A stretch of 64,000 nucleotides of DNA from Christensenella sp. UBA7588 (GTDB lineage: Bacteria > Bacillota > Clostridia > Christensenellales > CAG-917): positions 46,557-110,556 of the forward strand of contig DLKM01000025.1 of the NCBI GenBank assembly GCA_002478945.1. The letters run 5' to 3'. A program made the translations under genes and the position numbers. Within the stretch, counting starts at the first letter, position 1. Each line of letters opens with the position of its first letter. The notes under the pieces were generated by a model. It was not told the DNA's origin, did not search any database, and saw only the letters and a list, made by a program, of their open reading frames with translations. This document shows, piece by piece, positions 14,459-55,022 of this stretch.

Positions 14459-14515
14459 AAAATACTCCTGACAAAACTTGCACTCGCGCTTGCGTGTGCG
14501 TGTGATAACTAAAAA

Positions 14516-14544
14516 ATGATAACAAACTTAAAAATTTATGTCAA
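14516..14544 (-). promoter_or_regulatory. Putative sigma-A promoter of pheST
   Basis: Minus strand TTGACA (14544-14539), 17-nt spacer, TGtTATCAT (-10 at 14521-14516). This leaves a leader of only ~50 nt. Confidence 0.45.
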
Positions 14545-14680
14545 CAAATTATGACACAAACTCGAAAAGCCGTTTTCCGTTTCACGGCAAAAACGTAAAA
14601 AACGCACTCAAATCCGTGCGAAAATCGATACTTAAGCAATCTTCAAAAACGAATAAAGAGTTTTTATTTTTTAATCGCTT

Positions 14681-16127: not shown

Positions 16128-16140
16128 TTCTTTTTTCATA

Positions 16141-16461
16141 GCGAGATTAGTCTGTAAGCCGAGTTCTGTGTTTGACGGTCATCTATCTAGGACGTACATT
16201 TCTGCACGCCTCAAGCGATGTCGGGAACTTGCGGGCCACATTTTATGTTCCCTATCTTGCATCGAGTGGGGTTTACATCGCGCATTGTCGCCAAATTGCG
16301 GGTGAGCTTTTACCTCGCCTTTCCATCCTTACCGAAAAATCGGCGGTTTTTTTCTGTTGCACTATCCTTGAAGTCGCCTTCACCGGGAGTTACCCGGCAC
16401 CCGTGCCCTGTGATGCTCGGACTTTCCTCAAATATTTCATGCGACCGTCCGGCTAACTCGC
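16141..16461 (-). ncRNA. rnpB: RNase P RNA (type-A-like bacterial architecture)
   Basis: The minus strand contains GAGGAAAGUCCGAGC (CR-I), GGGUAACUCCCGG, AGUGCAACAGAAA, GGUAAG...GAAAGG, CCUAGAUAGAUGAC and ACAGAACUCGGCUUACAG (CR-V), collinear with E. coli M1 RNA. The 5' GCGAGUUAG pairs with the 3' CUAAUCUCGC (P1). Confidence 0.9.
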
Positions 16462-20269: not shown

Positions 20270-20297
20270 TTGACATTTTTCGATTGCGCTGTATAAT
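20270..20297 (+). promoter_or_regulatory. Near-consensus sigma-A promoter placed so the downstream ORF would be leaderless
   Basis: TTGACA (20270-20275), 16-nt spacer, TATAAT (20292-20297). The ATG at 20304 lies 6 nt after the -10 with no Shine-Dalgarno sequence. Confidence 0.5.
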
Positions 20298-20303
20298 AAA
20301 GAT

Positions 20304-20621
20304 ATGTTCGATTTGTTGTTGAGTATATCCGAATTTGGCACGAAATTAGTCGCGGGATTATCGGGACTTATTTTTGCCATAATCATTGTGGTATGCGTTT
20401 TGATTTCAAAAAAATCTGCCTCGAAACCGTCCTACCCCGATACCAAAATCGGTAAAAACGACGACGTGGCCAAAACAAACGACAAAAAAGCCAAGAAAAA
20501 CAAGAAAGGCAAAAAGGATAAAAAAGCTGAATCCGACGATACTGCGCAGACCGAACAAACCGACGATACTTCTGAGGACGCAGACGAAGTTACTGTCATA
20601 AAAGACGAGGACATAAAATAG
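20304..20621 (+). CDS. Small hypothetical protein: N-terminal TM helix plus a Lys-rich then acidic tail
   Basis: 105-aa ORF, the only plus-strand gene inside the recG...recN minus-strand block. No homology recognised. Confidence 0.4.
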   Translation: MFDLLLSISEFGTKLVAGLSGLIFAIIIVVCVLISKKSASKPSYPDTKIGKNDDVAKTNDKKAKKNKKGKKDKKAESDDTAQTEQTDDTSEDADEVTVIKDEDIK

Positions 20622-20640
20622 TTCCGATTGAAAAACAAAA

Positions 20641-20662
20641 AGCGACCGCAGGTCGCTTTTTT
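20641..20662. terminator. Bidirectional rho-independent terminator
   Basis: aaaaAGCGACCgcaGGTCGCTttttt between the convergent small ORF and tlyA. Confidence 0.65.
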
Positions 20663-20687: not shown

Positions 20688-21395
20688 TTATTTCTTCAAC
20701 CGCAAAAGATACTCGACGTTTTTATTCTCGTATCTTACGGGAGACGTTGTTTCGCTTACGACTTGAAATCCGTTTGCGACGGCATAACCTTTTACGCTTT
20801 CGAGCGCGCGCTTGCGCAATTTCTCGTCCGTTACGATACCGTTTTTATTCAAAGCGTTTTTGTCGAGTTCGAACTGCGGCTTGACGAGAACGACGGCTTC
20901 TCCGCCGTCTTTCAATACGGAATACATAGAGGCAAGAACGTATTTGAGCGATATAAAACTCAAATCGCTGCACAAAAAATCGACTTGCTCGAGGCTCGGC
21001 AATTCCCTTGCGTTTGCTCTCAAAAATTCGACTTTTCCGCTTTGCAAAAGTCTTTCGTCCAAAGCGCATTCTCCCACGTCTATTGCGAGTACGCTTTTTG
21101 CGCCGTGGCGAAGCAAACAATCTGTAAAACCGCCGTTTGAACAACCTATATCGGCGCAACGTTTCGCTTGGACGTCGAGATTCCATTCCTCAAAGGCTTT
21201 TTCAAGTTTATACGCGCCTTGCGAAGCGTAACTTTTATCTTCCGAAACGATAACTTCGTTGTCGTCGTCGACTTCCGCACCGCCTTTCGTCGCAATTTTT
21301 CCGTCGACGAAAACACAGCCCGTTTTTATAAGATTTTCGGCGTAGGTGCGAGATTTCAGATTGAATTTTTCAAGAAGATACTTGTCAAGTCGCAT
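20688..21395 (-). CDS. tlyA: TlyA-family rRNA 2'-O-methyltransferase (S4 domain plus FtsJ-like MTase)
   Basis: MRLDKYL...RTYAENLIKTG S4 domain, DIGCSNGGFTD SAM motif, 235 aa. Confidence 0.85.
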   Translation of the reverse strand: MRLDKYLLEKFNLKSRTYAENLIKTGCVFVDGKIATKGGAEVDDDNEVIVSEDKSYASQGAYKLEKAFEEWNLDVQAKRCADIGCSNGGFTDCLLRHGAKSVLAIDVGECALDERLLQSGKVEFLRANARELPSLEQVDFLCSDLSFISLKYVLASMYSVLKDGGEAVVLVKPQFELDKNALNKNGIVTDEKLRKRALESVKGYAVANGFQVVSETTSPVRYENKNVEYLLRLKK

Positions 21396-21416: not shown

Positions 21417-22277
21417 TTATTTTGATTTGTTAGCCTTTTGCTCTTTTGATTTTGACGTGCTTTTATCGGTTTTTTGTTCGGTTTTGACGGTAGATTTCTG
21501 TTCGTTTTTTGCGGCGTTGTTTTTCTTGCGAATCTTACGCTCGTCTTTTGAGAAAACGGCAAGCACGCGCGCAACGAACATAACGAAATCTTTGGAATTG
21601 CCTATCGCGATTTTCTTCATAAACGCCTTGCCGCCTATCGTCATTGCGGAAACGAGAGCGGATACGACAATCGAAATGACGGTCTGCACCGTAGGCGAAT
21701 CGTTGAGATTGACGGTAAGTTTCACAACCAAAGCCGCAGAACACGCACCCGAAATAATGGAGAAAATATCTCCCACTATGTCGTTGCAAACGCTCGAGAC
21801 GGTATCGCTGTTTTTTACGAGATTGAGAGCGGTTTTCGCGCCGTAAACTTTGCGCGACGCCATTGATATGATAGGCGTCACGTCGCACGATGTTACGGCT
21901 ACGCCGATTGCGTCGAAAAGTATGCCCATCAGCACCAAAAACGCCAACAACACGATTACGACGATAACCTGATTTGAATCTTCCACAAGGTTGCTTATAT
22001 ACGAGAAAAACGCCGACAGCACAAGCGAAATAATGACGGCTTTAATCCACCATACGTTGTGTTTTTTCTTTGGCTTTTTCTTTTTGTCCGACTGGCCGTT
22101 TTTGTCTTTTCGCGGCGTTGCCAAATCGGTTGAAATCTTGTCGATTGTAACGTTATTTTGTGATTCTAACCTGCTGTTTTCGGGGTTTTGAGAAAAAGAA
22201 ATACCATCGGAAGAATTATCTTTCGATGGCAACGGTATATTGGAAGCGTCCGCTTCGTTTTGATTGAGATTATCCAC
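21417..22277 (-). CDS. oapA: OapA-like (OLE-associated) four-TM membrane protein with hydrophilic N- and Lys-rich C-terminal extensions
   Basis: GTG start with GAGG 7 nt upstream, abutting the 3' end of the large ncRNA. About four TM helices are predicted, with D-x-x-x-D (NDIVGD) in one of them. Position between the ncRNA and tlyA matches the published OLE/oapA context. No alignment was run. Confidence 0.6.
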   Translation of the reverse strand: MDNLNQNEADASNIPLPSKDNSSDGISFSQNPENSRLESQNNVTIDKISTDLATPRKDKNGQSDKKKKPKKKHNVWWIKAVIISLVLSAFFSYISNLVEDSNQVIVVIVLLAFLVLMGILFDAIGVAVTSCDVTPIISMASRKVYGAKTALNLVKNSDTVSSVCNDIVGDIFSIISGACSAALVVKLTVNLNDSPTVQTVISIVVSALVSAMTIGGKAFMKKIAIGNSKDFVMFVARVLAVFSKDERKIRKKNNAAKNEQKSTVKTEQKTDKSTSKSKEQKANKSK

Positions 22278-22290
22278 AAATTACCTCAAA

Positions 22291-22884
22291 TTTTATTGCT
22301 TTGGATGGTGGTAACAATTTGGGTAAACCTTGCGCCATAGGTTCGGTAGGATTTCCCTGCATCGAAACTCGTCGTCACCGTCCGAGAAGTTTCCTATTAC
22401 TCGACGCATCGTCTTAAAGAAGAAACCGAATCGCCACTTAGAGCACACTATAATCCCCAGATTGCCTCATTAGAACAGTCTAGAAGATTTCCTTGACAGA
22501 TTCCGCCCGCCCTTATCTTTTTTTGCAGCGTACATTTCATCGGGCAATCACCGTCGCGTATTGGCCATACGAAAGGGCGTGGTTCCCTAATCCCTGTACG
22601 TCACTCAAAGCAGGCTACGCTGTACACAGCATTTTCACACCGCATATCAGGTTTCACCCCAGTCAGTAGACAGTTTTTACATTGCCCACCGAGTTGGGTC
22701 TCCACGGAAAATGGTACGGGGTTTGCATGCCGTTGCAAGCCGCCCAAAATCCTTAACTCCCAGCAACAGCCCCAATTTGGGCAAAAGAAGCCGTCACCAG
22801 AAACTTCATCGATATGCCCTTCGGCGATATTTTACCCCCGCCTCCGAGTCGGTGGAATCTGACTAGAATACTGCACCACCATTT
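22291..22884 (-). ncRNA. ole: Large structured noncoding RNA, most likely OLE (ornate, large, extremophilic) RNA
   Basis: About 590 nt with no ORF of 60 aa or more on either strand. Appears more GC-rich than its flanks (by eye). Own promoter at the 5' end. 5' AUGGUGGU pairs with 3' ACCACCAU. Lies directly upstream of a 4-TM protein and tlyA-nadK-argR-recN. Confidence 0.7.
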
Positions 22885-22890
22885 AATTAT

Positions 22891-22918
22891 ATTATACACT
22901 ATTCGTTAAAAATGTCAA
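22891..22918 (-). promoter_or_regulatory. Near-consensus sigma-A promoter driving the large ncRNA (and probably oapA)
   Basis: Minus strand TTGACA (22918-22913), 16-nt spacer, TATAAT (22896-22891), ~35 nt downstream of the recG stop. Confidence 0.65.
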
Positions 22919-22953
22919 ACGTCGATGCCAAATGCACGAATAACGGCGTTTGT

Positions 22954-24981
22954 TTAGCTGTTAAGCGTAACTTCGTCGAGTTTTTCGACAAATGCGTCGA
23001 CTCTTGCCTTGTTTCGGCGTGTAAGTGCCAAAAGTTCGTAAAGCGATAGGTCGGACAATTTACCGTCGGCATAATTCTTTGCGTTTTTAAGCACTTCGGC
23101 GTCCATAGGCAAATCGAATATCGGCGTGGAAGAACGTCCGCTTTGTCGAGTTCCGATAAAATCTCCCGCTCCTCTCATAGCAAAATCGACCTCTGCAAGA
23201 TACTGTCCGTCGTTGCTCTTGCAAAGAGTGTCTAATCTTTCGACGGATTTCTCGCTTTGAGAGGACGAATGCAGATAGCAACGCGCTTCGGAGCCGTCTC
23301 TGCCCACTCTGCCTCTCAACTGATGCAACGACGCAAGTCCGAACCTGTCCGCATTGACAATCAAAATCTCCGTCGCTTTGGTATCGATACCGACCTCGAT
23401 AACCGTCGTGGCAATCAAAAGTTTTGTTTTTCCGCTTGCAAAATCGAGCATAGCATTTTCTTTTTCGTCGTTAGATAATTTTCCGTGCATTACGGACGAC
23501 GGATATTTGTCCAAAACGGCTTGATAATCTCTTGAAAAACTTTCGATAGACGTAAGACTGTTACCCTCCGCGTCAACGATGGACGGGCACACGATAAACG
23601 CCTGTTTTCCGTCATCTAACGCGTCGCAAATTCTTCCAACAAGCATATTCAAGTCGCTCGATACGGTAGTTTTTACGTTGGTTTTCGCTTCGGCTCTCTT
23701 TTCTATTCGCGATATTGCGATGTCGTCGTAAAACGTTAGTGCCATAGAGCGAGGAATGGGCGTCGCAGTCATACTCAACACGTCGCAAGCCCCCTTTTTC
23801 TCGAGTTTACCGCGAACGTTCACGCCGAAGCGGTGTTGCTCGTCGATAATGGCAAGAGTAAGGTTTTTATACGCGACGTCGTCGCTGACCAACGCATTCG
23901 TTCCGATAACGCAAGATATGCTTCCGTCTTTAAGCCCCGATAAGATGCTCCTGCGCTCCGCAGTCGAAGTCGAACTTGTAAGCAATGCAAAACTTATGCC
24001 GAGTTTCTTTGCGACGGGAGCAAACTTTTCTGCGTGCTGTTTGGCAAGTATTTCAGTAGGAGCCATAAGCGCGCATTGCTTGCCGCACACGCTTGCAAAA
24101 TACATTGCGAAAAACGCCACCGCAGTTTTTCCGCTTCCGACGTCTCCGCTTATTATTCTTGACATCGTTTTGTCAGACGAAACGTCGGCAACAATATCGT
24201 CGAATGCTTGAAGTTGCGAGGGTGTAGGATTAAATTCCAGCGCAGAAATATAGTCAACTATTCTAAAATTTGCCGAATTATAAAATACTTTTCTCTCTTT
24301 TTTGCCGTTATTACGCAATTTTCGGTAAATTGACAACACAATCGCAACGTCTAACGAGGCAAGCGATTTTACTGCCCTTTCTGCCGATTCAAGCGTTTTC
24401 GGACGATGTGCCGACTCGAAACATCTCGTCATATCTTTGTTGACAACGGCAAGATTACCTTCGTATTCGAGAGCGGAAACGCTGTCCAATGCGGAATAAA
24501 CGATATTCTTGAACGCATTCTGCCCCATTACGTTTTTGAGCGGATAAACGGTATATATCCCCTGCAATTTGGATATTTTTTCAATCTTTTCGAGTTGCGG
24601 ATTAACGACGCAAAGCGCGCCTTTGTCCGAAGTGAGCCTCGTCAGCATACGATAGTTCTGACCGACTTGAAAGCCGTCGTGCAAAAACGGCATATTGTAG
24701 AAAATCGCTTTGAAGTATATTCTGTTGTCGGAAAGATTGTCGCTGAACGTCACGAAAAATGATTTCGCTCCGCGTATCGAGACCGTGCCTACCTTTTCGA
24801 CTCTGCCCTCCAAAAGACAAAGTTGACCTACTGGCGCGTCGATAACGCGAATCGGCTGTTGCAAATCGATATACTTTCTCGGCAAAAATGAAAAGACCTC
24901 GAATACATTGTGTATGTCAAGGTCGCTGAGTTTTTTCACGGTTGCGTCGCCGACGCCTTTAATATCTTTGAGTTGCAACAT
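22954..24981 (-). CDS. recG: ATP-dependent DNA helicase RecG
   Basis: Wedge domain N-terminus, GDVGSGKT Walker A, DEQHRFG, and the helicase C motif QLRGRVGR. Confidence 0.92.
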   Translation of the reverse strand: MLQLKDIKGVGDATVKKLSDLDIHNVFEVFSFLPRKYIDLQQPIRVIDAPVGQLCLLEGRVEKVGTVSIRGAKSFFVTFSDNLSDNRIYFKAIFYNMPFLHDGFQVGQNYRMLTRLTSDKGALCVVNPQLEKIEKISKLQGIYTVYPLKNVMGQNAFKNIVYSALDSVSALEYEGNLAVVNKDMTRCFESAHRPKTLESAERAVKSLASLDVAIVLSIYRKLRNNGKKERKVFYNSANFRIVDYISALEFNPTPSQLQAFDDIVADVSSDKTMSRIISGDVGSGKTAVAFFAMYFASVCGKQCALMAPTEILAKQHAEKFAPVAKKLGISFALLTSSTSTAERRSILSGLKDGSISCVIGTNALVSDDVAYKNLTLAIIDEQHRFGVNVRGKLEKKGACDVLSMTATPIPRSMALTFYDDIAISRIEKRAEAKTNVKTTVSSDLNMLVGRICDALDDGKQAFIVCPSIVDAEGNSLTSIESFSRDYQAVLDKYPSSVMHGKLSNDEKENAMLDFASGKTKLLIATTVIEVGIDTKATEILIVNADRFGLASLHQLRGRVGRDGSEARCYLHSSSQSEKSVERLDTLCKSNDGQYLAEVDFAMRGAGDFIGTRQSGRSSTPIFDLPMDAEVLKNAKNYADGKLSDLSLYELLALTRRNKARVDAFVEKLDEVTLNS

Positions 24982-48335: not shown

Positions 48336-48428
48336 GGAGAAGTCGCCTAGTTTGGTCGAGGGCGCGCGACTGGAAATCGCGTAACCGTCAAAAGCGGTTC
48401 AAGAGTTCGAATCTCTTCTTCTCCGCCA
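48336..48428 (+). tRNA. tRNA-Ser (anticodon GGA), class II with long variable arm, encoded CCA
   Basis: Acceptor GGAGAAG/CTTCTCC, anticodon stem CGCGA/TCGCG with loop CTGGAAA, variable arm AACCGTCAAAAGCGGTT, T-arm AGAGTTCGAATCTCT, 3' GCCA. Confidence 0.9.
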
Positions 48429-48546: not shown

Positions 48547-49533
48547 TTATATTGTTTCTGCCGCCACAGCGACCTCAGGAGCGACAATAACCTCGTCCTC
48601 TATTACTTGTTCAGACTGAGGTTCTGGCGTCGTAGAGGCGTATTCTATAAGCTGCTGCATAAGGTCTTTCTGGTCTTGCATATAGTTGACCGTATCGACA
48701 GTTATATTTTCGTAACCCATACGATACCCCATAAAGCCGTTGAGTATTACGGGCAGTAGTTTCAGGCAGCACGCCGCAAACGTTGCCCACGTCGGATATT
48801 TTATAACGTCGAGCACAATTACACCAGTAAGTAGCGACGTGATTGTTGTCCGAATAAACTTTGCGACGTAATGCACGCTACGTTTCGTTTCAGGTTTTAT
48901 TCCGAGCGGAGACCGATGTCCGTTCCCACGCCCACGCTTAAAAATCATTTCAGGCGTCAGGTTTACGGGCTTTGTCTGATTCGCCCTGATTATCGCCTTT
49001 ATCTGAGCTTTCGACAGGCTTTCGTCTGTTTGCAGCAACTTTTTGTCTTTGCCGACGTATTTGTCGATGTATTTTTCATACGAGATACCCACCTCGCTGA
49101 GAATATTCGTCCGAGTTTCCTTGAGTTCTCTGTCTATGTAATAACGGCAAAATTCGGTAAGCCTCGACTGATATTTTCTTTCGATTATCTGAGCCTTAAG
49201 TCCCTCGTATTCGTTTTTACAGTCCTGATACGTGTCACTTACCCTGCCAGCTTTCAAACCACTGTCAGAGCAGTTGACATACATACTGTATGAACAGAAA
49301 AGCAAGATAAAGAACGTAAGCCCGAGTTGAGCCCAGAACTCTACCGACGTTATCTTTATTTCCGTCGTAAAAACAACGATTACGACGAAAATAAGAAAGA
49401 ACCCGACAAAGATACCAGTATTATTGAGAATACTCCGTGTGAGCCGCTTTTTAGCCGCTCCGCCTTTTTCTATCGCCGTTCCGAGACTTCTCGACGGCGT
49501 TCTTTCATAATCGTCTTTTTTGATAGTTTGCAT
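48547..49533 (-). CDS. Prophage-encoded membrane protein, function unknown
   Basis: 328 aa with two N-proximal and further C-terminal TM helices. Last gene of the block. Confidence 0.45.
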   Translation of the reverse strand: MQTIKKDDYERTPSRSLGTAIEKGGAAKKRLTRSILNNTGIFVGFFLIFVVIVVFTTEIKITSVEFWAQLGLTFFILLFCSYSMYVNCSDSGLKAGRVSDTYQDCKNEYEGLKAQIIERKYQSRLTEFCRYYIDRELKETRTNILSEVGISYEKYIDKYVGKDKKLLQTDESLSKAQIKAIIRANQTKPVNLTPEMIFKRGRGNGHRSPLGIKPETKRSVHYVAKFIRTTITSLLTGVIVLDVIKYPTWATFAACCLKLLPVILNGFMGYRMGYENITVDTVNYMQDQKDLMQQLIEYASTTPEPQSEQVIEDEVIVAPEVAVAAETI

Positions 49534-49536
49534 ACG

Positions 49537-49935
49537 TTACACCTCATTGCCGTCGTCCGACGTTTCTTTCTTTTCGTCTGGCTTTTTTTCGACGGCGTCG
49601 CCTGCTTTATAAACAAACGAGCCGCCCCAGTTTGCCACCGCACCTATTATAAATATCATTACCATTTGGTCTATAATGTTTCTTAAACATATAGCCATTA
49701 TGGCAAGAACTGTAAACAGCACGGGAATCGACGGAGATTTAAGCCAGTTTTTTATCTGGTTAAAGAACGGAATTACGGAGAGAAACGCAAACACCAAGAA
49801 AAGACCTGAAACCGTCGCTGCGGAGCTTTTTTCAACCCAGATAGGAAACTGAGAAAGCGTTGCACCGAGCGGAGCCGCCACATCGATACCGATAGCGACG
49901 GCTTTTAAGATTTTGCCTTTCGTGGCATTTTTCAT
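49537..49935 (-). CDS. Small 4-TM protein (holin-like by size and topology only)
   Basis: 132 aa, four hydrophobic helices, charged C-terminal tail. Confidence 0.35.
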   Translation of the reverse strand: MKNATKGKILKAVAIGIDVAAPLGATLSQFPIWVEKSSAATVSGLFLVFAFLSVIPFFNQIKNWLKSPSIPVLFTVLAIMAICLRNIIDQMVMIFIIGAVANWGGSFVYKAGDAVEKKPDEKKETSDDGNEV

Positions 49936-49938
49936 AGC

Positions 49939-50805
49939 TTATCCCTCCGTTTTGTTTTCCTCTACGGCAGGTGTTGCGTTTGCCGATTCAAGCAACGCCG
50001 ACGCCTGTTCTACCGATTCTTTCAATGCAGGCACGTCCCCGAGCTTTTTGAGAGAGTCTGCATACGTCAGATTTACAAGGTCTTTTACTCCCTGAGGCAA
50101 GTTCTTCGAGTTTGCATACACGGTAATAAGTATTTTGAGAATTGCCTGCGTCTGGACGATAACCGCACCGACCGCCTCATAGTTCTGCGTCTCGTTTTTC
50201 TTGTATGCCGCAAATTCGGTTTCGATTTTGTTGTAACCCTCGATAAGATTGTTTACAACGTCAACAACGTCAGACTGGGCATTAGACGTAAACTTGACAT
50301 CACGGGAAAGCCCGAGCATATTCTTCTTGCTTTTAATAAAGTTTACAAGAAATACTATAAATAATACGATGTCGCCTACGGTGGTCGCAAGGGCAATATA
50401 GTTATTTTCGAGCCATTCCTGCACTCTTCCGAGAAAAGTATGATTTTCGGGCGGCGTAACGTCGCTTTCGACCACTTTAACAAGGTTAGAACCTTGTATA
50501 TAAAATCGCCCGAGTTCTTCGCCCATTGCGGACAGCGTAAGCACGCCGTCGAGGTATGTATAGGAGCCTTTATATTCGATTTCCTCCGAGCCGTGAACGG
50601 CGTGCAGTTTATATTCCGTTTCGGATAAAATCGTCGCCGAGTATTCGCCGCCGTCGTCGGAGAACGTATAAGTTTCGCCTATTACGAGCGGCGTCGCTGC
50701 CTCTTCTGCGTGGGCGACGTTTGCCGTAGTAAAACCGCAAAGCACGAACGAGAGAGACAAAGCCATAAAGCAGCACATAAGTGCAAAGATAAGTCTTTTT
50801 TTCAT
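49939..50805 (-). CDS. Secreted/membrane-anchored prophage protein
   Basis: Signal peptide MKKRLIFALMCCFMALSLSF...AHA, central TM helix, C-terminal helical domain. Confidence 0.45.
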   Translation of the reverse strand: MKKRLIFALMCCFMALSLSFVLCGFTTANVAHAEEAATPLVIGETYTFSDDGGEYSATILSETEYKLHAVHGSEEIEYKGSYTYLDGVLTLSAMGEELGRFYIQGSNLVKVVESDVTPPENHTFLGRVQEWLENNYIALATTVGDIVLFIVFLVNFIKSKKNMLGLSRDVKFTSNAQSDVVDVVNNLIEGYNKIETEFAAYKKNETQNYEAVGAVIVQTQAILKILITVYANSKNLPQGVKDLVNLTYADSLKKLGDVPALKESVEQASALLESANATPAVEENKTEG

Positions 50806-50820
50806 AGATAACCTCCAAAG

Positions 50821-51285
50821 TTATGTAATATCGTATCCCTCAAGCAGCTTTGCGATTTTTTCTTCAAGCTCCGAATATTTTTCAGCTACAGTTTGTAATT
50901 CCGTTTTTATCTTCTGCATATCGAGCTGTATTTCGGCTACGATTCTCGGTAAGTCGCCGTCATTCGGAGCAACGAGCACTCCAGAGCCAGCCACAGGCTC
51001 CGCCTTAAGCTCTTCGCAGACAAAAACAGGCGTTGACGTCTTGCCGTTCATAACGGTAACAGCTACGTTTATTTCGCCCTTTAAGAACTCCGCAGGCACG
51101 CTGCAAGTTTTATCCTGCAGTGTTCTGTAAATTGAGTCTCCCGTTGCATAACTCTCGAAAATAGCTACGGCGTCGTCGGGGGCGTCCGAAAAGGTAATAA
51201 TCAATTCGTCCGAAACGATTTCAGGCTGTCTCGTCAAGAGTATGCCTTTCTTGAAGTCTCTCAAAATTTTGTATTCCATTTTCAT
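50821..51285 (-). CDS. Hypothetical prophage protein (beta-rich N-terminus, coiled-coil C-terminus)
   Basis: 154-aa ORF immediately downstream of the DGR target. No family recognised. Confidence 0.4.
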   Translation of the reverse strand: MKMEYKILRDFKKGILLTRQPEIVSDELIITFSDAPDDAVAIFESYATGDSIYRTLQDKTCSVPAEFLKGEINVAVTVMNGKTSTPVFVCEELKAEPVAGSGVLVAPNDGDLPRIVAEIQLDMQKIKTELQTVAEKYSELEEKIAKLLEGYDIT

Positions 51286-51295
51286 ATCCGCTCCT

Positions 51296-53044
51296 TTATT
51301 CGACTTTGGCGTCGAGTACGCATTTTACGCCCCCGAGTTTGATGTCTCCCTCGGTATCGTTTCGCATAACCACGATTTTCAAAATAACTTTCCAGTAGGT
51401 TACGCCCTGCTGTTTTGCTCCGTTTGTGAATACGTGGTTTATATTCGCTTTGACAGCCGTTGTGATGTCGTCCCAGACTGGCTGCGTATCGTTACCGTTA
51501 TTACACGCAAGCACCTGTAAACCAGCCGCAAAGGGTTTTATGAGGTCGAGTTCGACGTTTATTGCTTTCGGCTGCACGGCAATATTTCCTGTCGGAGAGT
51601 ATTCGAGTTCGAGAACGCCTGCACTTTTGGTAAAGTGTTTCGTTTGCGTTACCGTCGCCGCCTCGTCCGAGGCAATGATTTTGATGTAATTGTCGCCTAC
51701 AGCGATAGCTCCCCACTGTGCCGACGTTATCTCAAACGTTTGCTGTTGCCCTGCTGCCGCCTGATACGTTCTGAGCAGTGTAGAGTTCAGATACTCCTTG
51801 ACGGTAATGTTTGCGTCGTCTCCGTCGTATATCGTGTAACTATACGAAAATCTCGTCGGTTTTTCTCCGAGGTTGCTTTCGTCACCCGATATAAACGGAG
51901 GAAAGTTATCCTGAACGACGTAAACGGGCGACGTCGCATAGTCCGATTCCTCTTCGGAGTTTACTGATTTGACCCTGTATTGCAAGCTTTGATACGAACT
52001 GAGCACGTTTTCGGTGTAACTTCTTGCCGTGCCGCTATATATCTGTGCAAACGCACCGTTGTTGACGCTGCGTTCCAAAACATAGCTCGTCGCATTGCCG
52101 ACCTCAGTCCACGTTATTTTTGCCGTGCCGCCCTCAATTCCGCCCGTTTCCTGCGTCGGTTGGCAGTATATCGGGTTTGATACCGAGATTTCAGGAGCCG
52201 ACAGACCCGTATCCAAGTTGAGAGTATAACAACCGTCCGAGTCGGTCGAATCGGAGACAGAGACTCCAGAGTCCAGATTGCAAAGCGGACGCACGCCGCG
52301 GCCACCGTAATACGCAAGGCCGTAGTACAAACTACCGTCCGAAGAGACACCGCGAACATCGTACGAGTCCGACGAGTCAGGAGTTCTGAGCCAGTAATAC
52401 CAGTTGGCACCTGCCGTAACCGCAGAAGAGCCTTTATTTGCGTTGTCTTGAGCGGCGTAAGCCGAAATTTGAGCAATTCTTATTGCGTTAGTGTTTGCAC
52501 TAAAATACGACAGGAGGCTGCCCTCCATAATACTGTTTTCCGCAGCTCCGAACAGTTCAGCTCTGGACGGTAAGAAAAATTTTCTTACAATAGACTCATA
52601 ACTACCGCCGTCGGTAACAGTGTTCAGGGCGACTTTTAACGTGGTATCCTTAAGAGCTGATACAAAAGCGTCGTCGAAACCAGCCAAAAAACCTGAGTCA
52701 GTATCATAAAGGTTTCTGGAAACGTATGATGTGCTATTCGGCGACTGGTCTGCGGAATGCCTTGCGGAATACCATTGACCTGCCGCAGCAGTAGAGTTGA
52801 GCCACTGGTCGAGGTTGGAAACGGAATATTTGTTGTTTCCGTAACTTTTACGATTGCTGTCGCTGTTATTCGGTTCTTTTGCGTCAAAGGCACGCAAGAG
52901 AATAATCTTCTCGGTTATGAGCGTCGTCGAGTTCTCGGGATAACCGTCGTGGTCTTTATCCGCCTTTAGAAAAATGATGTCTCCCAAAACGGAGTGCGAT
53001 ATTTTAATTTTTGAGCCTATCGCAAGGCTGCCGAGTGTTGCCAT
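51296..53044 (-). CDS. DGR target (variable) protein: N-terminal C-type-lectin-fold-like ligand-binding domain containing the VR, followed by FN3/Ig-like domains
   Basis: Contains the VR (aa ~221-255: PDSSDSYDVRGVSSDGSLYYGLAYYGGRGVRPL) inside a WYYWLRTP...GVRP motif typical of DGR variable domains. Downstream, AKITWTEVGNATSYVLERS...YRVKSVN resembles FN3. Confidence 0.85.
   Translation of the reverse strand: MATLGSLAIGSKIKISHSVLGDIIFLKADKDHDGYPENSTTLITEKIILLRAFDAKEPNNSDSNRKSYGNNKYSVSNLDQWLNSTAAAGQWYSARHSADQSPNSTSYVSRNLYDTDSGFLAGFDDAFVSALKDTTLKVALNTVTDGGSYESIVRKFFLPSRAELFGAAENSIMEGSLLSYFSANTNAIRIAQISAYAAQDNANKGSSAVTAGANWYYWLRTPDSSDSYDVRGVSSDGSLYYGLAYYGGRGVRPLCNLDSGVSVSDSTDSDGCYTLNLDTGLSAPEISVSNPIYCQPTQETGGIEGGTAKITWTEVGNATSYVLERSVNNGAFAQIYSGTARSYTENVLSSYQSLQYRVKSVNSEEESDYATSPVYVVQDNFPPFISGDESNLGEKPTRFSYSYTIYDGDDANITVKEYLNSTLLRTYQAAAGQQQTFEITSAQWGAIAVGDNYIKIIASDEAATVTQTKHFTKSAGVLELEYSPTGNIAVQPKAINVELDLIKPFAAGLQVLACNNGNDTQPVWDDITTAVKANINHVFTNGAKQQGVTYWKVILKIVVMRNDTEGDIKLGGVKCVLDAKVE
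52281..52383 (-). repeat. DGR variable region (VR)
   Basis: 103-nt match to 54254-54356 with 18 mismatches, every one opposite a TR adenine on the coding strand. Confidence 0.92.
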
Positions 53045-54098
53045 TTTTTGTTTTTTCCTCCTTTGGGAATAATTCGTTGTAGTAAGATTCTATTTCTTTC
53101 AGCAAGTGGTAGCAGTTGCCTCGGGACATATGCCCGACGGTGCTTTGCCACGAGCACTCTATACGCTCCATAGGCAATTTGCCTTGCTCGTTCAGCCGTT
53201 TCATTTTGCGGAACTTTCGGCGTATTTTGTGCTTTTTATCGCTCCTGAGTTTCATAATAACCTTACCTGTGTCTGTCAGGTAGGTGTGGAACCCGAGGAA
53301 GTCAATTCCGTTACGCAAAGGAAAGATATTCGTCTTTTCGTTAAGCTCAAGCCCTAAATCTTTTACGAAAGCCCGTATTTTCACGAGGCAATCTTGCAGC
53401 ACGGCTTTGTCTTTATGAACAAGATAAAAATCGTCCATATATCTGCCATACATCTTGATTCCGAGCTTTTCCTTTACGTAATGGTCTAACCCGTTCAGGT
53501 AAAGCAAAGCGAAAAGTTGCGAGCTCTGATTTCCTATCGGTATTCCAACCTTTCCCTCCGTGCTGTCGATTATCATATCACATAGCCAGAGAGTATCTGG
53601 GCAGGATATAAACCGTCTCAATTTCTTTTTGAGAATCTCGTGGTCTATGTTGTAAAAATACTTTCTGACATCGCACTTGAGCACCCAGCCCTCGGCTGTG
53701 CCGTTCTGGCGATAATACCGCAACAAAAAGCATTTCAAACGTTGTAGTCCAAAGTCCGTGCCTTTGCCGACCTGCGAGGCGTAATTGTCGGTTATAAACG
53801 ATTTCGTTAAAATCGGTTCTAATACGTTGTCGCAGAGCGAGTGTTGGACGACTTTGTCTTTATAACTGTTACTCATAACAAGCCGTTCCTTTGGTTCGTA
53901 GACCTTGAAAACGTTATACGGAGACAGCGTGTAGGTCTTCGTAATAAGCTGTCTCTTTAGCAGTAGCAACGCCTCAAGTAAATTTATCTCGAATTTGACG
54001 GCGGCGTCTTTCCAACGCTTGCCTCTACGAGCCTTGAGATACGCAGCATAGAGATTCTCTAAATCGTAAATCTTTTCGTATTCCTGCATAGATTTCAA
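53004..54098 (-). CDS. DGR reverse transcriptase
   Basis: RT motifs including GIPIGNQSSQLFA (the DGR-type [ILV]GxxxSQ) and YGRYMDDF (YxDD). 364 aa. Cognate TR immediately upstream. Confidence 0.92.
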   Translation of the reverse strand: MKSMQEYEKIYDLENLYAAYLKARRGKRWKDAAVKFEINLLEALLLLKRQLITKTYTLSPYNVFKVYEPKERLVMSNSYKDKVVQHSLCDNVLEPILTKSFITDNYASQVGKGTDFGLQRLKCFLLRYYRQNGTAEGWVLKCDVRKYFYNIDHEILKKKLRRFISCPDTLWLCDMIIDSTEGKVGIPIGNQSSQLFALLYLNGLDHYVKEKLGIKMYGRYMDDFYLVHKDKAVLQDCLVKIRAFVKDLGLELNEKTNIFPLRNGIDFLGFHTYLTDTGKVIMKLRSDKKHKIRRKFRKMKRLNEQGKLPMERIECSWQSTVGHMSRGNCYHLLKEIESYYNELFPKEEKTKNGNTRQPCDRLKN

Positions 54099-54253
54099 AA
54101 ATTCCTTATCGCATATAGCTATTGCCTTTTCTTATGAAAATGCCGTTGCGTCGATAATCTTGTATTTATCCTTTCGGAAAGGATATGCTCTCCTTTGATT
54201 GGTGGAGTGCTGCTTTCGCCCAAATATGGCTACTCGGTCTGACTTTATACCAC

Positions 54254-54356
54254 CAAAGCGGACGCACGCCGTTGTTACCGTTATACGCATTGTTGTTGTT
54301 CAAACTACCGTCCGAATTGACATTGCGAACATTGTACGAGTTCGACGAGTTAGGAG
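54254..54356 (-). repeat. DGR template repeat (TR)
   Basis: Noncoding copy of the VR. The coding-strand reading has 12 AAC/AAT codons (PNSSNSYNVRNVNSDGSLNNNNAYNGNNGVRPL). Lies between avd and the RT. Confidence 0.92.
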
Positions 54357-54387
54357 GGGCAGAGCATACCCTAAGAGATGTACTTAA

Positions 54388-54804
54388 TCAACCGTTATGA
54401 CTGCTGTTCCGCTTGTCGCTATTCCTCCAAGCGGCAGTCATACGTTTGACTTCTACGACAAGCCCACTCCAGTATGCTACCGATTTCATTTCGAGTTCGA
54501 TAGTCTTAAGTTTGTAGGCTAACTCTATCATTGTGTTAAGCAATTTGCACGACACTATCGCCTCTTTCTGGCACTCATATCTGGAGCGTCTTTCGGCGGC
54601 GTCGTTAATGTCGCACTCGTTTGCTCGGACAAGGTTTTCATAGATGTCGATAGAGATATTTTCTATTCTGGCACCTATCGAAAACCTATATTTCTTAGGA
54701 AAATGGTTTGTGTTTGCTGTCATTTTGCAGCTGTGTTCCATAAGGTCTTTCGCTTTTGTAATGACAGCCATTTCCTTAGGGTTACGTTCGTTTACTTTTA
54801 ACAA
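54388..54804 (-). CDS. avd: DGR accessory variability determinant (Avd, four-helix-bundle protein)
   Basis: 138 aa, basic, helical. FPKKYRFSIGARIENISIDIYENLVRAN resembles the Avd / 23S-IVS four-helix-bundle family. Directly upstream of the TR. Confidence 0.8.
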   Translation of the reverse strand: MLKVNERNPKEMAVITKAKDLMEHSCKMTANTNHFPKKYRFSIGARIENISIDIYENLVRANECDINDAAERRSRYECQKEAIVSCKLLNTMIELAYKLKTIELEMKSVAYWSGLVVEVKRMTAAWRNSDKRNSSHNG

Positions 54805-55022
54805 TACAGATACCCTCCCGACAGATTGCTATTTCCGTTGAGCAGCGAGCAGCCGTCAAGATTTGTAAAGACCTTAATATACTGCGTGCCGCCGAGCGTT
54901 TCGTGCACCTGTTTTATTTTTTCTGCCGCAGCGGCGTTGTCGTCCACAGTCGCTTTCAACGCCTTAATCGTTTCGAGCAGTTCAAGAGGGTTAGATACGT
55001 TTTTAAGTTTGATTTTGTCCAT
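54798..55022 (-). CDS. Hypothetical small prophage protein
   Basis: 74-aa ORF overlapping the avd start by 7 nt. Confidence 0.35.
   Translation of the reverse strand: MDKIKLKNVSNPLELLETIKALKATVDDNAAAAEKIKQVHETLGGTQYIKVFTNLDGCSLLNGNSNLSGGYLYC

Follow-up and report, generated by a model that had tools for sequence, protein, structure and literature searches.

OLE (ornate, large, extremophilic) RNA usually lies in the gene cluster xseA/xseB-ispA-OLE-oapA-dxs-tlyA-nadK-argR-recN. Few bacterial RNAs of unknown biochemical function are as large or as well conserved, which lends a carefully annotated copy some value for comparison; we know of no species in which the chemistry of the OLE particle has been established. 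OLE has been reported in 2,846 GTDB assemblies (PMC11332333). In the best-supported account, the RNA forms a dimer and is held at the membrane by OapA, and the particle helps cells adapt to stress from Mg2+, alcohol, cold, and carbon sources (PMC12265935). Two further partners, OapB and OapC, occur in ~60% and ~45% of OLE species, respectively (PMC11332333). In the model species Halalkalibacterium halodurans, the GNRA loop and the bulge of P13 make up the primary OapB site, and P14.1 is a weak secondary one (PMC7936274). The OapC k-turn was placed in J4a/5 together with J5/6 (PMC9723947, PMC12054373).

The locus described here lies on a 64-kb stretch of DNA, referred to below as the window. 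A covariance-model search (cmscan, Rfam 15) placed an OLE match (RF01071) at positions 22292–22895 of the minus strand with 407.7 bits and an E-value of 2.6e-116, the gathering score for this family being 50 bits. The match covered the full model (positions 1–616 of 616). We are confident that this interval encodes OLE, which in Bacillota is the RNA component of a membrane-bound ribonucleoprotein, as the original prediction had proposed; the RNA proper probably runs from ~22884 to ~22300. In a permissive Rfam scan of the whole window, no second RNA family was found at the OLE interval at E-values up to 0.05. The same threshold yielded no covariance-model match in the window for ROOL, GOLLD, HEARO, or raiA, the rival classes named beforehand.

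The match is contained in a gene-free gap of 676 nt (22278–22953). It had been described as the largest ORF-free interval in the window, and this was correct: with long ORFs laid out greedily, the runner-up was 554 nt. The accompanying remark that it was more GC-rich than its surroundings was true only marginally (GC content of 48.0% for OLE, 46.0% for the window, and ~45.8% for the flanks). ORFs inside the gap were only 47–58 aa long. They occur on both strands, which is the point in favor of the interval encoding one or several small proteins; however, the substitutions observed here follow base-pairing. Another large noncoding RNA class would likewise have to be reconciled with OLE being the sole Rfam family that matched, even at E-values up to 0.05. 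We give practically no weight to either of these readings.

In the parsed OLE alignment, 134 of the 155 gap-free model pairs were canonical. Identity was found at 219 of the 249 strongly conserved (upper-case) consensus positions (88%). The blocks GUGGUGCAGUAUUCUAGUCA, AUCGAUGAAG, UUAAGG, CCGUGGAG, GUAGCCUGC, CUAGACUG, GGAUUA, AAGUGG, GGAAAC, and GGGAAA were kept, and the long invariant blocks are common to 40 other OLE RNAs. Eighteen other OLE loci scored under the same conditions ranged from 396 to 578 bits. The window OLE and its relatives (399–416 bits) were at the low end of this range, together with two Christensenellaceae/Borkfalkiaceae loci; the published OLE bit-score classes (PMC11332333) were based on a different model and are not directly applicable to these scores. 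Among the scores sampled it ranks low, and the window OLE can be called divergent, as originally predicted, in a mild and relative sense only; the full model coverage and the high proportion of pairs and conserved positions retained count against the term.

Further loci were sampled by an exact scan for an invariant 5′ block, with one genome per species, which gave at least 119 loci. Among the matches listed, the closest copy belonged to a MAG labelled Christensenella sp. UBA767 and was 96.8% identical over 603 nt. Four further MAGs were 84–93% identical and the next one 73%. Given this public copy and the 2,846 assemblies already reported, the element is a known one, and the window OLE is a typical full-length member of a catalogued family. 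The copy itself adds little that is new, as the family is in Rfam, near-identical MAG sequences are public, and the loss of the P13 tip discussed below has been published.

The secondary structure was assessed by projecting the Rfam structure, together with a closing helix P1, onto a MAFFT alignment of 41 OLE RNAs. Pairing partners slid by 1–3 columns, plus 500 shuffles, served as controls. Standard pairs occupied 87.1% of the cells in the given structure vs. 41–45% in the slid ones. Both sides had changed in 121 of 161 pairs (54–78 in the slid controls), and the covariation score was 0.462, compared to 0.09–0.13. None of the 500 shuffles reached the observed values. In the six closest relatives taken alone, 27 pairs had changed on both sides vs. 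0–8 in the slid controls. The covariation that was looked for is therefore present in the broad alignment as well as in the close one, and the both-side changes within the clade indicate that the OLE fold is under selection there, which speaks against a relic. In the long Rfam helix at model positions 93–139 (22757–22803 of the minus strand), one pair varies among the six clade members, and about half of the pairs are G-U wobbles.

The 5′ end of the RNA had been predicted to be complementary to its 3′ end, closing the whole element. In the Rfam model both ends are unpaired and P1 is absent. We found that the 5′ strand of P1 (AUGGUGGU, 22875–22882 of the minus strand) pairs with the 3′ strand (ACCACCAU, 22305–22312 of the minus strand) through eight Watson-Crick pairs and a possible G-U. 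P1 was paired in 96% over the 41 OLE RNAs, and three of its eight pairs had changed on both sides. In a set of 103 OLE RNAs, the pair that flanks the invariant GUGGUG/CACCAC core on its outer side was G-C in 62 cases, A-U in 33, and G-U in 5; one pair further out, U-A was found in 31, G-C in 29, A-U in 21, and C-G in 3. The closing helix P1 is real and clearly supported by covariation, and it is a useful addition to the described structure.

A consensus scan located a −35 hexamer TTGACA at 22913–22918 and a −10 hexamer TATAAT at 22891–22896, both on the minus strand. With a spacer of 16 nt between them, the two hexamers match the consensus at 12 of 12 positions, so that what had been predicted as a near-consensus promoter was in fact a perfect one. 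The −35 hexamer lies exactly 35 nt past the recG stop (22954–22956), which is the distance predicted. Perfect TTGACA-16-TATAAT was found at three sites in the 64 kb and at none in 100 shuffles; the perfect OLE promoter is not expected by chance. Both hexamers are invariant across the seven RecG-linked loci (the window and six relatives), and the flanking intergenic sequence is not alignable. Judging by the spacing, transcription would start at about A22884, 1–2 nt before P1. At the sequence level, OLE thus has a dedicated consensus sigma-70-type promoter that abuts P1 and is conserved in its clade. Perfect consensus promoters abut OLE also in the ispA-linked loci L056, L082, L111, L118, and L119; the RecG-linked clade is therefore not alone in having a promoter of its own for OLE.

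A second perfect TTGACA-16-TATAAT in the window (20270–20621 region, plus strand) ends 6 nt before a 105-aa ORF (20304–20621, plus strand). This ORF is convergent with tlyA and has a weak match to the SAG1386/EF1546 surface protein. The promoter spacing suggests that its mRNA may be leaderless or near-leaderless.

Downstream of OLE is oapA (21417–22277 of the minus strand), recognized by its homology to OLE-adjacent ORFs. It encodes a membrane protein of 286 aa with the GTG start and the four hydrophobic segments that had been predicted (~78–98, 103–125, 167–189, and 197–215). In two of the relatives (L051 and L047), an ATG aligns with this start codon, which is preceded by a GAGGU ribosome-binding site at 22283–22287 and located 27 nt after P1. 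The ORFs that come after OLE in 91 other loci encode homologues of this protein, with identities of 30–45%, rising to 67–76% within the clade. Residues D170, K217, and K221 were invariant over the 92 sequences, and W76, D122, D166, G169, and G216 were nearly so. A low-complexity N-terminal extension of ~55 aa precedes the hydrophobic segments. The C-terminal tail of 65 aa, with a net charge of +12, is at the upper end of the family range. The match to Pfam CNNM was weak (27.1 bits, below the cutoff of 28.4), and such a weak match was present in 59 of the 92 homologues, in agreement with the published OapA-MpfA relationship (PMC12265935). No NCBIfam model matched OapA, and PDB sequence searches with OapA alone or with the 92-sequence profile returned nothing meaningful.

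The next gene, at 20688–21395 of the minus strand, encodes a TlyA-type S4 and FtsJ rRNA methyltransferase (Pfam FtsJ, 9.8e-34; S4, 4.4e-10). In a terminator scan, no terminator-like site was detected from the 3′ end of OLE to the oapA start codon (GTG, 22277), as had been claimed. The first convincing one, at 20661–20637, lies past tlyA; it is a hairpin of 11 pairs (20637–20661) with an A run before it and a T run after it. It sits between the convergent tlyA and the plus-strand ORF 20304–20621 and is probably bidirectional. The transcription unit probably consists of OLE-oapA-tlyA, with tlyA as the last gene.

Another OLE clade labelled Christensenellaceae is distinguished by a strongly shortened P7 and is represented by 11 loci (L082, L118, L089, L053, L105, L040, L070, L103, L111, L035, and L079). 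In the same 11 loci, a GC hairpin with a T run (e.g., ACGCACG...CGTGCGTATTTT) is present between OLE and oapA. It resembles a terminator or attenuator; the window's clade does not have it.

This arrangement of the transcription unit raises the question of whether OLE serves chiefly as an unusually long, structured 5′ leader that controls oapA and tlyA in cis, and not as a free RNA acting in trans. The oapA start follows P1 after 27 nt with no terminator in between, oapA has no evident promoter other than the one directly in front of OLE, and the terminator-like hairpin between OLE and oapA in the other Christensenellaceae-labelled clade would fit attenuation-type control there. However, in H. 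halodurans OLE is an abundant RNA that functions as a ribonucleoprotein and to which OapA, OapB, and OapC bind (PMC12265935). Moreover, ~600 conserved nucleotides with ~20 covarying helices go far beyond the needs of known leaders, and the cis and trans roles are not mutually exclusive. We regard a mainly cis-acting role as improbable and retain the reading of the RNA as the subunit of a ribonucleoprotein.

Upstream of OLE, at 22954–24981 of the minus strand, is recG (675 aa; Pfam RecG_wedge, DEAD, and Helicase_C). The same recG-OLE arrangement was found in six other loci (L009, L014, L047, L051, L074, and L113). Among the listed loci with a scorable upstream gene, this gene was ispA (polyprenyl synthase) in 85 of 105, a RecG-type helicase in 6 of 105, and xseA in 4. 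The six RecG-linked loci are exactly the relatives of the window among the matches listed. No IspA or Dxs homologue was found across the whole 64-kb window. Downstream of OLE, homologues of OapA, TlyA/FtsJ, NAD kinase, ArgR, and RecN follow; family matches thus bore out the series tlyA, nadK, argR, and recN predicted beyond oapA. Two gene blocks characteristic of Bacillota meet in the window, priA-def-fmt-rsmB-rlmN-rsgA ... asp23-fakA-recG and OLE-oapA-tlyA ... nadK-argR-recN. The OLE synteny is typical of the family and not defining, and linkage to ispA and dxs is not obligatory, as shown by the 6 of 105 sampled loci with recG upstream. The altered neighborhood that was originally thought valuable is real insofar as recG replaces ispA and dxs is absent, but it is a clade-level synteny variant and its significance was overrated.

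Among the matches listed, the closest loci belong to MAGs that carry the labels Christensenella sp. UBA767, Clostridia, or Clostridiales; the labels and sample names point to gut Clostridia. Judged from the labels of these related MAGs only, the host would be a gut-type anaerobe, and it may face other stresses than the alkaliphilic model species does. No paper that treats OLE in connection with recG or with Christensenella was found in the literature. Two OLE loci, L044 and L113, are on contigs that bear the labels Deltaproteobacteria and Bacteroides, probably Bacillota contigs that were wrongly binned or mislabelled. A few non-Bacillota OLE matches have been noted as such mislabelled cases (PMC11332333).

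The protein-binding elements of the RNA were compared with those of the model species. The J4a/5 block AUCGAUGAAG at 22804–22813 of the minus strand equals the family consensus and is nearly invariant over the 41 OLE RNAs. UUAAGG, within GUUAAGG at 22751–22757 of the minus strand, is also identical to the consensus. At the sequence level, the window OLE thus supplies both parts of the published OapC k-turn site. Changes at consensus 'cgA' and 'GACCC' had been considered as damage to the OapC k-turn; this was rejected, as J4a/5 and J5/6, where the k-turn is located, are intact.

A difference was found at P13. The hairpin UUCUUCUUUAAGACGA at 22409–22424 of the minus strand is shortened by a 6-nt deletion relative to the model and has no GNRA tetraloop; its local fold is a 5-pair stem with a UUA loop (UUA/CUUU-type). 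In a survey of 119 loci among the matches listed, most OLE RNAs had a P13 ending in GGNRAC. A short P13 without GNRA was found in the window, in the five relatives covering P13, and in ~12 other Christensenellaceae-type loci among these matches. Variant OLE RNAs of gut clades have been described as often being without the P13-tip nucleotides (PMC11332333). The GUGA tetraloop of the P14.1 hairpin (22368–22386 of the minus strand; model alignment and local fold) is retained. Since the P13 GNRA loop is absent, the complex of this clade probably functions without OapB at P13 or uses the P14.1 GUGA loop instead. P7–P9 are of full length, with just a 3-nt gap relative to the Rfam model; the RNA therefore combines a full-length body with one variant trait, the loss of the P13 tip. 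A basic OapA tail as a substitute for OapB was considered and rejected, as neither the length nor the charge of the tail tracks the loss of the P13 GNRA loop over 89 loci. The median tail in these loci was 29 aa without the loop vs. 39 aa with it, and basic tails were general.

Some of these traits could also be expected if the window OLE were a non-functional relic, decaying in a host-associated lineage that is losing components of the system. The bit score at the low end of the sampled 396–578, the lost P13 tip, the absence of ispA and dxs from the locus, and the reduced variants published for gut clades (PMC11332333) are compatible with decay. Frameshifted oapA or broken helices in clade members would fit it as well, but the opposite was seen. 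The full model is covered with 88% of the conserved positions kept, compensatory changes occur inside the clade itself, the promoter is conserved, and oapA is intact with all family-invariant residues. We consider decay very improbable and take the window OLE to be most likely a functional RNA.

The following scheme can be proposed for this functional RNA, by analogy with H. halodurans and from the layout of the locus. The promoter is placed so that the transcript would start 1–2 nt before P1, which closes the RNA. OLE would form the 5′ portion of an OLE-oapA-tlyA transcript, with or without later processing. Going by work on H. halodurans and by cryo-EM studies, the RNA would dimerize, and OapA, a distant relative of divalent-cation transporters of the CNNM/MpfA type, would anchor it at the membrane. 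By the same analogy, the particle may help the cell to withstand excess Mg2+, short-chain alcohols, cold, and poor carbon sources.

We tentatively propose, as a possibility we rate below even, that the RecG-linked gut clade runs a pared-down OLE particle, with a full-length RNA and its own strong promoter, in which the P13 OapB loop and the linkage to ispA/dxs have been lost. If this is true and oapB is absent, OapB and the isoprenoid linkage would be dispensable for a full-length OLE RNA. The clade would then represent a mesophilic, host-associated system for the core function of OLE and OapA.

Several other features were observed in the window. A cassette resembling a diversity-generating retroelement occupies 51296–55022 of the minus strand. 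It includes a bAvd-like ORF (54388–54804), a reverse transcriptase (53004–54098), and a 103-nt direct repeat (54254–54356 and 52281–52383, 83% identical), the copies of which are candidate template and variable repeats. The second copy is carried by the gene of a DUF6273 protein (51296–53044). A match to the Rfam RT-2 RNA at 54085–54247 was sub-threshold (34.8 bits vs. 40, E-value of 1.8e-4). A tRNA-Ser(GGA) gene (48336–48428, plus strand) adjoins four ORFs without a Pfam match (48547–51285, minus strand), which lead into the cassette; this stretch may be a prophage or an integrated element. RNase P RNA of bacterial class A (249.6 bits) was found at 16138–16460 of the minus strand, downstream of recN and a 200-aa ORF without a family match. 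The 222-nt gap upstream of pheS-pheT (14459–14680) gave no match to T-box or any other Rfam family at E-values up to 0.05.

With respect to known systems, OapA of the window shares with the MpfA-CNNM (DUF21) proteins four transmembrane segments, family-invariant acidic and basic residues, and a basic C-terminal tail, and it is weakly similar to the CNNM transmembrane domain. MpfA has CBS and CorC domains, whereas OapA of the window, like all OapA proteins, is without them. The RNA is closest to the full-length OLE type (Fernando and Breaker 2024; H. halodurans) in being likewise ~600 nt long with all helices of the Rfam model present, and in both loci oapA is directly downstream and is followed by tlyA, nadK, argR, and recN. 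It differs from this type in a number of features. The upstream gene is recG instead of ispA, and dxs is not present. OLE has its own perfect promoter, whereas the cluster of the model species has been reported to be transcribed as one polycistronic RNA (PMC12265935). The P13 GNRA loop of the H. halodurans RNA is missing, as is the CCUCC anti-Shine-Dalgarno mimic for bS21 binding found in H. halodurans P6 (PMC12054373), and the Rfam score ranks low among those sampled. In comparison with OLE 'variant 1' of TANB77 and other gut clades (PMC11332333), the window OLE does not have the shortened P7, P8, and P9. The loss of the P13 tip, the OapB site, is common to both, and the hosts of 'variant 1' are, like the window's clade, uncultured gut Clostridia known from MAGs.
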